Source: an uncultured delta proteobacterium (lineage in GTDB: Bacteria > Desulfobacterota > Binatia > UBA9968). Taken from it: a DNA stretch of 64,000 nt. Shown here piece by piece: positions 8,472 through 26,637 of the stretch. The translations under genes were made by a program, and so were the position numbers. The stretch's first letter is position 1, and every line of letters begins with the position of its first letter. The stretch covers positions 32,001 to 96,000 of the forward strand of contig CAVXEP010000020.1 of NCBI GenBank assembly GCA_963760795.1, read 5' to 3'. The notes under the pieces were generated by a model. That model had not been told where the DNA came from and made no database searches. It was given only the letters and a program-made list of their open reading frames with translations.

Positions 8472-9011
8472 ATGAGCAAACTACCCAACGCGACACGCGA
8501 AGGACTTTCCGCAGAGCAGCTGAAAATCTGGGACCGAATCTTCGAGGGTCGCACCGGCGGCGGCGGTCCTTACTCCATGCTGATGCACTCGCCGGAGATG
8601 GCACAGCACTTCGCCGCCACCGAAGACTACTTTCGCAACCATTCGCTCCTGCCCGATGCCGACCGCGAGATCATCATCCTCACCGCTGCCCGCGAAGTAA
8701 GCGCCCACTACGCCTGGACGCGCCACGAAATCCGCGCTCACAAAGTCGGCATCATGCCGGAAACGATCGAAGCGCTGCGCGCCCATGCCGACGCCGACAA
8801 ATTCACCGGCAAAGAAAGACTGCTGGTGGAATTTACCCGCACGCTGATGAACCAACATGAGCTACCCGAAGAATTGTTCGCACGGATGGAAAAGGAGTTC
8901 GGCAAGGCAAAGTTTATCGAAGCCGTCGGCCTGCTCGGCCACTACATCACCATCGGCACAGTGATAAGAATGTTCGACGTCAGACCGCCGGCGGGAAGTA
9001 AGACTTTCTAA
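8472..9011 (+). CDS. CMD/AhpD-like family protein (no CxxC)
   Basis: GGPYSMLMHSP, REIIILTAAR, HYAWTRHE, VGLLGHY. Confidence 0.88.
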   Translation: MSKLPNATREGLSAEQLKIWDRIFEGRTGGGGPYSMLMHSPEMAQHFAATEDYFRNHSLLPDADREIIILTAAREVSAHYAWTRHEIRAHKVGIMPETIEALRAHADADKFTGKERLLVEFTRTLMNQHELPEELFARMEKEFGKAKFIEAVGLLGHYITIGTVIRMFDVRPPAGSKTF

Positions 9012-23321: not shown

Positions 23322-23448
23322 GTTCGCACCCTTTAGTAACTTATGACTAACCGCGGCAATGCGGATCGAGCACGAGCACGTCGTTAAAGCCGGCCATTGA
23401 CATCGTTGGCACCGCCATTTAACAATCCGCCCGAACCAAGGAGAGCTT

Positions 23449-23937
23449 ATGCCTAAAGTCACATCCCTCGGACATCTGGGTTTTCATGTGCGCGATATGG
23501 AACGCTCGGTGGCGTTCTACCGCGACATTCTCGGTTTAACCGTCAGCGACCGCAGCCCGCGCGGCGCCGTGTTCATGACCAGCCAAGATCGCAGCGTCGA
23601 GCACCACGAGCTCTACTTGGCGCCGGGGCGCGACGACGACGGCAAGGTCAACGTCTTGCAGCAGATTTCCTTCCGCTGTCCGACGTTGAAGGATGTCAAG
23701 GATTTCTATCAGCTATTCGTCGACAAGCAGGTGCCGATCAACCGCTGCGTCAGTCATGGCAACACCGTCAGCATCTACGCCAGCGACCCCGACGGCAACT
23801 CGGTGGAAGTCTACTGGCCGAGCGGCGTCGACGTGCCGCAACCCTTCGGCAAACCGATGGACTTGACCAAAAGCGAGGTGGAAATCCGCGAACAGCTCAA
23901 TCAGATCCTGACAGAGTGGCAAAACCAAACTTCATAA
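23449..23937 (+). CDS. VOC/glyoxalase family protein
   Basis: LGHLGFHVRD, FYRDILG, HHEL, DPDGNSVEVY. Confidence 0.9.
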   Translation: MPKVTSLGHLGFHVRDMERSVAFYRDILGLTVSDRSPRGAVFMTSQDRSVEHHELYLAPGRDDDGKVNVLQQISFRCPTLKDVKDFYQLFVDKQVPINRCVSHGNTVSIYASDPDGNSVEVYWPSGVDVPQPFGKPMDLTKSEVEIREQLNQILTEWQNQTS

Positions 23938-23993
23938 AACCCGCTCTCAAGAATAATTAACAATCGGCGAGCCCAGAAGTCATTGGAGACGTT

Positions 23994-24563
23994 ATGCCGC
24001 GTATTCCCTACGTTGACCCGGATAAAGTTACCGACCCAGAGATCAAGGGCTATCTGGAGCGCGCTCGCCGTGAAGGCACGCCGCGCCCTGAAAGCCAGGC
24101 CGTGCGAGCCAACGTCCCCGAGGTCATCCGCGCGTTCTCGCAGGCGTGGGAACTCACGTTCCGCAACGGCGTCGTCGACCACGCGCTCAAAGAGCTTTGC
24201 CGGGTTTACGTTTCGAAATCGATTGACTGTCAATATTGAGGCGTGCAGCGCTCCGTCCAGGCTGGACGGCAAGGGCTCATTGAAGCGAAGTATGATGAGT
24301 TGCTCAACTTCGCCGACTCGGACAAATTCACCGAGCGAGAAAAAGTCGCGCTAACCTACACCAGCGCGATCGCTTGGAACTCAGACATCGCCGACGACGC
24401 GCTCTGGGCAAAATTGCACCGACTTTTTTCGACTCCCGAGTTGGTCGAGCTCGGTTTTTTCATCGGCCTCACCCTCGGCCAACAGCGCTGGATCAAAACC
24501 CTCGGCATCGACCATGGCGCCGTACTCGGCGATACCACCGCCGGTCTCGCGCCGACGAACTAA
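23994..24563 (+). CDS. Putative selenoprotein: AhpD/CMD-family protein with CxxU motif (U82, TGA at 24237-24239)
   Basis: ORFs 23994..24239 and 24243..24563 are in the same frame; LKELCRVYVSKSIDCQY-TGA-GVQR matches the AhpD CxxC position; FTEREKVALTY and ELVELGF downstream. Confidence 0.9.
24247..24277 (+). promoter_or_regulatory. Putative bacterial SECIS element
   Basis: CCGTCC-AGGCT-GGACGG hairpin (24253-24269) with an imperfect lower stem agcgct/agggct; loop starts 19 nt after the TGA. Confidence 0.8.
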
Positions 24564-24584: not shown

Positions 24585-24938
24585 GCCACCGAATTGTCCA
24601 TGAACTTGCGCTCGCCTACAGAGCATGGAAATGGTTCGCATCCCAGAACATGCTCCCCTCGTCGATTCGTCATTCCGGCGCTCGCGGGAATCCAGGTTTG
24701 GTCGGCGCCCGATTAGCCTGGATACCCGCTTTCGCGGGTATGACGGAACCCAGGCGGCTCTTCGTCGTGCATCCCACTCCTGGATGCCGGCCTGGGCACG
24801 AATGACGAATTCGGAATGAATACCTCGGAGGCTTCGGTATCTTCATACTCTATACGAGCGCAAGCTCATGCAACCTTCGTGGTGCAACACTCTTTCCCAT
24901 TCGGTTGCGGCTGCGCCGCGCTGGGTACTTCGTGGTGA
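24585..24938. repeat. Nested MITE/REPIN-like element with about 34 bp terminal inverted arms
   Basis: Arms 24599-24632 and 24839-24870 are imperfect reverse complements, enclose family C palindromes and are flanked by family A-like ends. Confidence 0.75.
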
Positions 24939-24947
24939 AAACCAATT

Positions 24948-26637
24948 TCACAAACGCTCACCGCCGACTGAGCGCGACCGTTCAGCGATTTGCGAAACAT
25001 CGTCCAGCGCATAAATCGCTAGCGCTTCGCGCCGGTTGCGCACGGTAAGTTCGTGGCGCGGCAGGCTGGCCGTGTTCAACCCCGACTGCTTGGCGACTTC
25101 TGCCGAGATCACCAACTGACAGTGAAACTCCTTGGTCGCATCTTGCAGCCGGCTGGCGACGTTGACCGTATCACCGATAGCGGTGACGTGAATCGTTTCG
25201 CCGTAGCCCATGCGCCCTACCACCGCCGGGCCGCAGTGAATGCCGATGCCAATGCGCAGTGGCGCGCTGAGTTCTTCTGCGAGTGCTCCGCTGAGCTCGT
25301 CGACCCGCTTAATCATCACCTGGGCAGCGGCGAGCGCTTGGCGGCAGCCTTCTTCGGGTCCGCTTTCGACGCCGAACAGCGCCATCACACCGTCACCGAC
25401 GAATTTGTCGATGATGCCGCCGCTCGAGACGATTGCCGCACCGACGGCGGTGAAATAGCTGTTCAAGAAAAACACTAAATCGTAAGGCAGTTTGGTTTCA
25501 GCGATGCCGGTAAACGAGCGAATATCCGCGAACATCACGGCGATCATGCGCTCCTGGCCGGCGAGATAGGCCGGTTGCCCATACCCCGCACTCGCCTGAG
25601 CATGGGGCGGCAGGAGCGGCGTCACCGTGAGATTATTCGTCGGCCGCAGCTGGCAGGCCAGTCGAACATCGGGCGCGGCGCCGACGCGCTGCAAGACTTT
25701 CAACTCGCCGGCAGCCGGCGGCGGCAAATTGGCAGCGCCATGAGTGACCCGCACCCGGCACGTCGAGCAGCGCCCGCGACCGCCGCAAACCGAAGCATGG
25801 GGGATCGCCGCTAGACGGCTCGCTTCGAGGACGGAGAAATTGCGCGGCGCCTGCACCTCCCGGCCATTGGGATACGTAATGCGGATGCGGCTGCGCCGCT
25901 CGATCAAGCTGCGCGCAACCGCGCGCTATGAGCGCCAAGACGATCGCCGCGCCGAACGTTATCAGCACGCCGTCATAGATCTGGTACAACACCGCTCGCT
26001 GGCTGCGCGGCGGCACTTTCGCAGCCACAAGGAAGCGCTCGAGCCATTCCGGCTGGCGCGCGATCAGGTTGGACACTTCCCGACCGGCACCGACGAAACC
26101 CAACAGCCCGCACACCGGGATAAGCAACGCCAGGGTGAGCAGGTAGGGCGCGATGCGCGGATACCATTTCTTCAATCGCAGCCAGTAGTGGCAGCCGATA
26201 CAGCCATGGGTCCAGGCGATGACAATCAGGATCGCCTGCTTCAATCCATCCATCGGCGCAGCATGCCAGAGGGTCAAAACCATCAAAGTGTAGGAATCGT
26301 CGACGCCAAAAAATTCATGGGTGAGCCGGGTGCCGACGATATGGATCGTCAGCAATAGCGGGATGGTCAAACCGAATAACAGTTGCAGCACCTCGGCCAC
26401 CGGCATGCGCCAATGGCGCCGCTGGTACAGCGCCCAAATCGCCAAGCCTAAGTGAGTCAATAACGCGCTGTAAAGAATCGCCGTGCCGACGGGATTGCGC
26501 CACAAAAGCAAAAACCAGCCACGCCCCCACTCCATCGCCGCCAACGAAATCAAGCCGAGCGCATGATTGAGCAAATGCGTCGACAAATAGGTGAGCAGAA
26601 TTAGCCCCGTAACCAAACGTGTGCGCCGAACGTTCAT
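24948..26637 (-). CDS. Class III adenylate cyclase with His-containing membrane domain and 2Fe-2S ferredoxin domain (CyaC-like), apparent frameshift at about 25915
   Basis: HLLNHALG and WTHGCIG membrane helices, CGGRGRCSTC...RLAC, FADIRSFT, DKFVGDG, GDTVNVASRL. Confidence 0.9.

Follow-up and report, generated by a model that had tools for sequence, protein, structure and literature searches.

An in-frame TGA in an AhpD-superfamily gene of an uncultured soil bacterium is very probably read as selenocysteine

Introduction

Does the TGA at positions 24237-24239 of the DNA analysed here end a gene, or is it read through as selenocysteine (Sec)? The DNA, hereafter the window, is a stretch of 64,000 nt from an uncultured delta proteobacterium (GCA_963760795.1, contig CAVXEP010000020.1, positions 32,001 to 96,000). 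Translation with table 11 gives two ORFs in one frame, 23994-24239 (81 aa) and 24243-24563 (106 aa), and the TGA is the sole interruption of frame 23994-24563. The initial annotation placed this TGA at the second Cys of an AhpD C-x-x-C motif and proposed a single Sec enzyme of 189 aa, recoded with the help of a hairpin just downstream, probably co-transcribed with an upstream VOC gene and liable to be called as two fragments by standard pipelines.

Results

The reading frame

Re-reading the frame confirmed the two same-frame ORFs and the position of the TGA at the second Cys of C-x-x-C. The complete AhpD/CMD-superfamily CDS (23994-24563, plus strand) runs from ATG 23994 to TAA 24561-24563, and a Shine-Dalgarno-like GGAGA (23985-23989, plus strand) is read directly in the sequence 4 nt 5' of the ATG. 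The N-terminus MP[RH]IPYV is common to the orthologs at the same-genus loci. The read-through product has 189 residues and carries the motif S-I-D-C79-Q-Y-U82-G-V-Q-R-S, in which Cys79 (TGT, 24228-24230, plus strand) opens the C-x-x-U redox motif and residue 82 is encoded by the candidate Sec-UGA (24237-24239, plus strand).

A crude filter for other two-part frames with C..U, U..C or a similar arrangement in the window gave 14 candidates; by eye, the 13 others look off-frame and of low complexity.

Conservation of the TGA in homologs

A word-indexed homolog search gave 5573 matches at E <= 0.001, the best 120 of which cover 94-100% of the read-through protein; full-length homologs span 99% of its 189 residues. 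In an alignment of these best 120, the first position of the motif is Cys in 119 and a gap in one. At residue 82, 109 sequences have Cys, 10 have Trp and one has a gap; the 10 Trp-bearing sequences are the closest relatives, with 69-80% identity. These Trp were presumed to be TGA codons that the source pipelines had translated with a different code.

The expected footprint of a gene called in two pieces was also present. In an exhaustive search of representatives, with 1150 matches at E <= 0.001, the table of the 150 matches listed was read by eye: 16 of them stop at query residue 81, which is their own C-terminus, and five begin at residue 84. These pieces are the footprint of one gene called as two fragments, as the initial annotation had predicted of standard pipelines.

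Genomes were compared at the DNA level as well. Whole-genome searches of 60 relatives and of the window's own genome found 25 other genomes whose match contains exactly one TGA, 23 of the same genus and two from another family of the order (the 23 include the unpublished genome G004, used for this count of 25 only). Cys forms, at 53-58% identity, were found in five genomes among the 60 relatives. The TGA stands within C-x-Y-TGA-G-V-Q-R-S in 19 of 19 other same-genus loci, or 20 of 20 with the window's own. It occupies the same column in 80 of 80 loci from species representatives of a genome collection (73-98% identity), 79 of them located by this motif and L097 by a less strict version of it. 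In two distant orthologs (L040 and L041, 47-50% identity) the TGA is in the same column with different residues following it. Among all the loci located the interruption is always TGA and never TAA or TAG. The homologs show either Cys or TGA at this column. That the TGA and its hairpin are more than chance rests on conservation, of the TGA here and of the stem pairing given below.

A FastTree tree was built from 199 rows after masking of the Sec column; P0043, which has a gap there, was left out, and rows with Trp were assumed to be Sec. This tree requires 10 changes between Sec and Cys, five of them forced by well-supported branches. Such a number agrees with the repeated exchange of Sec and Cys that the available text of PMC1794560 describes in bacterial selenoproteins.

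Some copies depart from the common pattern. Three same-genus copies are broken: G025:C56 (L043) is truncated after residue 144, and G008:C54 and G004:C152 match in two pieces; these may be either frameshifts or assembly errors. At L091 there are apparently two TGA-bearing copies about 2.8 kb apart (tblastn match 1087-1647, with the motif also at about 4111).

The hairpin downstream of the TGA

A bacterial SECIS core hairpin lies at 24253-24269 (plus strand), with a stem of 24253-24258 paired with 24264-24269 and the loop AGGCU at 24259-24263, in agreement with the earlier description of a CCGTCC-AGGCT-GGACGG hairpin whose loop follows the TGA by 19 nt. The A and U of the loop are able to pair, leaving GGC. 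The bSECIS model in the accessible part of PMC13188914 calls for an apical loop of 3-9 nt on an upper stem of 4-16 bp, a G in the first two loop positions (mostly N1-G-[G|U]-N-N2), a spacing of 16-37 nt between UGA and loop, and a minimum free energy of -7.5 kcal/mol or lower. With a loop of 5 nt on a stem of 6 bp, the loop sequence A-G-G-C-U, a spacing of 19 nt and -9.8 kcal/mol, the present hairpin lies within all four of these published constraints.

The 17-nt hairpin alone, at -9.8 kcal/mol, has a z-score of -3.37 and none of 200 shuffles folded as well. A 60-nt fold of this G+C-rich coding sequence was no better than its shuffles (z -0.38; 65 of 200 fold as well). Scanning 24150-24350 against Rfam at E <= 10 gave three chance-level matches (best E 0.45) and no bacterial SECIS family.

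Among 20 orthologs the wobble-position entropy averages 0.93 bits and reaches its minimum for the gene, 0.17, at codons 81-92 (11-codon window starting at codon 81-82). The 33 nt past the TGA contain five variable columns against a mean of 15.4. In 75 distinct 45-nt sequences the 6-bp stem (columns 17-22 with 28-33) has standard pairs in 450 of 450 cells, and three of the six pairs show compensatory changes: C-G to U-A in nine sequences, U-A to C-G in four and C-G to A-U in two. None of 500 shuffles reached the observed pairing, the count of double-change cells or the covariation score, a test that is inflated by the kinship of the sequences and uses a structure derived from one of the sequences tested; register-shifted controls gave 18-49% pairing. 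L040 and L041 have a 7-bp hairpin of other stem sequence with a GGC or GUC loop at the same distance from the TGA. No such hairpin was found in three of three Cys-form loci.

Selection on both sides of the codon

The window's gene was compared with 19 same-genus orthologs. For the 104 codons past the TGA dN/dS was 0.045-0.137. The 81 codons upstream gave 0.00-0.12; synonymous sites were saturated in two of the comparisons. The low dN/dS downstream means that the part after the TGA is translated in the same frame.

Purifying selection downstream would also fit a C-terminal part that is translated separately. The TGA would then be a true stop, and a protein of 81 aa and another of 106 aa, started at the GTG at 24243 that lies one codon past the TGA in the window, would assemble into the enzyme. 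The start codon needed for this is poorly kept. GTG is found at codon 84 in just 37 of 75 distinct sequences, and in 39 of 79 loci there is no start at or before that codon, the first in-frame ATG, GTG or TTG lying further on (codon 95-177) or, in one locus, being absent altogether. Every break is a TGA, and every one falls at the Cys column. The co-varying hairpin would be left unexplained. Furthermore, the joined protein matches the Pfam CMD family PF02627 with 25.2 bits (cut-off 23), neither half alone matches it, and the second redox residue would be lost. A split gene is therefore extremely unlikely.

Sequencing runs

A TGT or TGC codon becomes TGA by a single-base change, and a nonsense mutation in a decaying gene, or a sequencing error, would produce the same interruption; the few relatives with broken copies (G025, G008 and G004) could be taken as a sign of such decay. 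Public sequencing runs bear on this. The stretch is present in soil metagenome contigs from several studies, and in contigs of four public runs from three studies no letter other than those of TGA was found at 24237-24239, neither TGC nor TGT being present. DNA contigs bridge the TGA in X1 (24123-24424) and in X2 (24180-24274). A metatranscriptome contig of 269 nt, X15, also bridges it (24017-24285), while X16 covers 24229-24428 with a left flank too short to count as bridging; the other RNA runs, which contained less than one fifth of the words, were left out. The codon is TGA in more than 100 independent assemblies, down to 47% identity, and dN/dS is about 0.05-0.14 on both sides of it. One systematic error shared by all these assemblies is implausible across technologies and studies. 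The probability of a pseudogene or sequencing error is thus close to nil.

The X15 contig, being from an RNA library, is a weak hint of expression, as such contigs may stem from DNA. Contig cover was missing over parts of the VOC gene and of the gap that follows it and has no bearing on co-transcription.

Just downstream of the selenoprotein gene, contig word-depth climbs steeply at 24632-24700, and up to about 24850: starting at about 4-5, it reaches 75-300 in X1 and 27 in X2. Repeat-like inverted motifs occur in 24632 to about 24850, which suggests a multi-copy intergenic repeat element.

Selenocysteine machinery and genetic code

The assembly is binned, with 6.58 Mb in 35 contigs, 89% completeness and 6% contamination. 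All the components looked for in the genome were found over their curated cut-offs: selA (612 bits), selB (410) and selD (379) on contig C11 and tRNA-Sec (76.7) on C13. The selenoprotein gene is on C20, and thus gene and machinery are on different contigs of a binned assembly. ARAGORN also reported a tRNA-SeC with anticodon tca. The selD gene itself has one in-frame TGA and is probably a Sec-type SelD. The selD, selB and selA genes (L001, L002, L009) lie together on the minus strand at C11:1948-7514, with about 1.3 kb between selB and selA.

The Trp found at the residue-82 column in 10 of the 120 best homologs, as given by source annotations, would be expected if UGA were read as another residue, either as Trp under code 4 or 25 or by near-cognate read-through with Cys or Trp. 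The tRNA complement and the stop codons tell against this. Among 43 tRNAs the anticodon tca is unique to tRNA-Sec, tRNA-Trp has cca, and 55 of 79 orthologs use TGA as the ordinary terminal stop of the selenoprotein gene. Taken together, these observations speak against a code in which TGA means Trp. The full selABD set is present as well, the homologous residue is Cys and not Trp, and the Trp calls are most simply, on our assumption, translations by gene callers run under code 4. Decoding as Trp or Cys is very unlikely.

Given the conserved TGA, the selection on both sides of it, the SECIS, the machinery and the fold described below, the earlier proposal of one 189-aa Sec enzyme is upheld. All the computational checks suggested in the initial annotation had a favourable outcome. 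As judged from sequence comparison, the two ORFs almost certainly encode a single protein in which the UGA is decoded as Sec.

Protein fold and family placement

PF02627 is the only curated model that the protein passed. AlphaFold2, run on a 56-sequence alignment, predicted one all-helical domain (pLDDT 95.3, pTM 0.90) in which Cys79 immediately precedes a short helix, residues 80-83, containing residue 82. Foldseek matched this model to AhpD-core proteins, with TMq of 0.78 for 6k40, 0.77 for 2prr and 0.76 for 2oyo, and 0.61-0.63 for 7xw1, 2ijc and 2gmy. The lowest E-value, 5.5e-05, was obtained with the debrominase Bmp8 (6ohj, TMq 0.69). When solved structures were compared by family profile, PA0269 came closest (E 2e-15), followed by Bmp8 (E 1.3e-13), and their motifs, C-A-Y-C and C-M-Y-C respectively, align onto C-x-Y-U.

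In the canonical AhpD motif CxxCxxxH, the His four past the second Cys acts in a proton relay. The locus departs from canonical AhpD in having Arg86 instead of this His and in having no adjacent ahpC. Arg86, four past Sec, is nearly invariant, and PA0269 has His there. With Arg in place of His, the details of AhpD-type catalysis may differ.

The homologs carry the source name 'alkylhydroperoxidase family enzyme'. NCBIfam models gave sub-threshold matches only, 55.7 against a cut-off of 310 for NF053654 (residues 1-158) and 25.3 against 81.8 for TIGR01926. Since the TIGR01926 cut-off is missed, the gene is filed in the superfamily as a separate subfamily, and since the NCBIfam cut-offs are missed, filing as a classical AhpD-like protein rests on motif and fold. 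The protein belongs to a Sec subfamily of the AhpD superfamily that is captured by no curated NCBIfam model.

A distant AhpD/CMD paralog without an internal stop lies at 8580-8939 of the window on the plus strand (G000:C20:40580-40939, L020), with 22% identity over residues 38-158 (E 4.7e-7).

Gene neighbourhood and distribution

The upstream gene, 23449-23937 on the plus strand, is of the VOC/glyoxalase family (Pfam Glyoxalase PF00903, 61.1 bits). A promoter-like site, 23397-23426, precedes it, the gap to the selenoprotein gene is 56 nt, and no terminator-like site was found in this gap. Co-transcription of the two genes, proposed in the initial annotation, is thus plausible in the window, but the pairing is not conserved. 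In the 77 assessable loci with at least 700 nt upstream, from the 79 genome-collection loci found by motif (L097 being left out), the VOC gene is directly upstream in 11, 1.1-2.8 kb away in six and not in the locus in 60. The VOC link holds only in close relatives.

The neighbours in the window are MurJ, VOC, a Fer2-cyclase, an ORF of no assigned family and an amidohydrolase. The Fer2-cyclase gene is convergent (24948-25907, minus strand) and fuses a 2Fe-2S ferredoxin domain, PF00111, to an adenylate/guanylate cyclase domain, PF00211; it may be a redox-sensing cyclase.

The named neighbours in more distant loci are varied enzymes and regulators. Among 123 flanking ORFs of 63 loci (L063-L126, L097 left out) the largest shared neighbour family was found in four loci. 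No adjacent peroxiredoxin was seen at the loci examined and no operon partner emerged.

These results bear on the kind of reaction catalysed. The protein could be a genuine selenoprotein and yet a reductase of small molecules, for example a reductive dehalogenase like Bmp8. Bmp8 has the lowest Foldseek E-value, its profile match is about as good as that of PA0269, and catabolic neighbours occur in other lineages (amidohydrolase, MmgE/PrpD, 2-hydroxyacid dehydrogenase, M24 peptidase). However, the TM-scores are higher to 2prr (0.77) and 6k40 (0.78), uncharacterised peroxidase-related AhpD-core proteins, no halogenase or bmp-like genes were found among the neighbours examined, and no conserved neighbour points to a pathway. 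A small-molecule reductase, of the Bmp8 type or similar, is unlikely.

By record title the 80 loci are assigned to at least 11 phyla, with 18 in Binatota, 10 in Rokuibacteriota, the remainder in others and 19 without a label, although such labels of metagenome-assembled genomes (MAGs) are unreliable. An even sample of 400 other genomes of the window's phylum gave no match (0 of 400) at E <= 1e-30. The patchy spread of the Sec form over L047-L126, at 73-98% identity and with unrelated neighbours, suggests either that a single gene has spread horizontally or that the MAG labels are unreliable.

Discussion

The best overall explanation of these results, and on the sequence data a very probable one, is that the locus is a Sec-recoded gene of the AhpD superfamily, in which the UGA is recoded by way of the hairpin and Cys79-Gln-Tyr-Sec82 forms the redox motif. 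SelB carrying Sec-tRNA(Sec) would bind the hairpin at 24253-24269, 13 nt past the UGA, and the bound SelB would recode the UGA at 24237-24239 as selenocysteine. If selenium were lacking, the ribosome would be expected to stop there and release a fragment of 81 residues.

The attacking residue of the AhpD CxxC motif is the one in the second position, the position held here by Sec82. By analogy with AhpD and the thiol-oxidoreductase families, the selenolate of Sec82 would attack an oxidised substrate, either a hydroperoxide or an oxidised partner protein. The presumed resolving cysteine, Cys79, would convert the intermediate to an intramolecular selenenylsulfide, and this might then be reduced by a cellular thiol reductant, a dithiol. 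For the activity itself, a peroxide or partner-protein reductase is a suggestion from these analogies with an even chance of being right.

A further proposal goes beyond this. The proteins may be a distinct, uncurated Sec subfamily, marked by CxYU, by Arg for the AhpD His and by about 50 extra N-terminal residues, that spreads as a single gene among soil and groundwater bacteria of at least 11 labelled phyla and carries out small-molecule reduction of the Bmp8 or deiodinase kind, for example dehalogenation. Bmp8 reportedly shares its mechanism with the Sec-dependent thyroid deiodinase, and were such chemistry true here, Sec would give a catalytic advantage. The proposal as a whole seems improbable.

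For annotation the preferred reading, a single Sec-containing AhpD-superfamily enzyme, has a practical consequence. One selenoenzyme replaces two meaningless fragments or a Trp under the wrong code, and at present no curated NCBIfam model rescues the subfamily. The presence of selA, selB, a Sec-type selD and tRNA-Sec indicates that an uncultivated soil lineage uses selenium, and the hairpin adds a well-supported example of a SECIS with natural compensatory variants.

Comparison with known systems

AhpD-like proteins were rightly cited in the initial annotation as a recognised selenoprotein family, and have been so since 2005, when the Sargasso Sea metagenome yielded CxxU selenoproteins of the AhpD-like and CMD-like types, according to the available text of PMC1088965. 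The portion of the GOS selenoproteome report at hand (PMC2398784) gives 299 genes for AhpD-like 1 and 70 for AhpD-like 2, the latter commoner in non-marine samples, and both AhpD-like and CMD-like selenoproteins appear in the accessible parts of recent reviews (PMC9312934, PMC13188914). The present work is therefore a re-annotation within a type known since 2005 and not the description of a new kind of system. Since AhpD-like selenoproteins with CxxU already belong to the textbook inventory of the prokaryotic selenoproteome, no new question is raised.

The AhpD-like family (COG2128/YciW type, TIGR01926; 'AhpD-like 1') and the present protein both have CxxU with Sec second and many Cys homologs, a downstream SECIS hairpin with a G in the apical loop, and the helical AhpD-core fold. 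That family was defined on marine samples, whereas the present carriers are soil and groundwater MAGs, and the two are set apart by the TIGR01926 score and not by member sequences. With the CMD domain-containing or 'AhpD-like 2' proteins (PF02627), likened here from the descriptions in the available parts of PMC1088965, PMC2398784 and PMC13188914, the protein has PF02627 and CxxU in common. The best NCBIfam match, NF053654 'GroundWater_YciW, YciW-related (seleno)protein', is a Sec/Cys family of groundwater-type organisms to which the protein is related without being a member.

Among solved structures Bmp8 (6ohi, 6ohj) has the same fold (TMq 0.69-0.70) and a similar length of 187-195 residues, but differs in its 19-20% identity, in Cys instead of Sec and in belonging to a marine bromopyrrole pathway; the neighbours examined here included no counterparts of that pathway's genes. 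The closest by sequence is PA0269 of Pseudomonas aeruginosa (2ijc, 2o4d, 7xw1; TMt 0.79-0.85), which has about 145 residues, lacks the N-terminal 50 or so residues of the present protein, and has Cys for Sec and His for Arg86.
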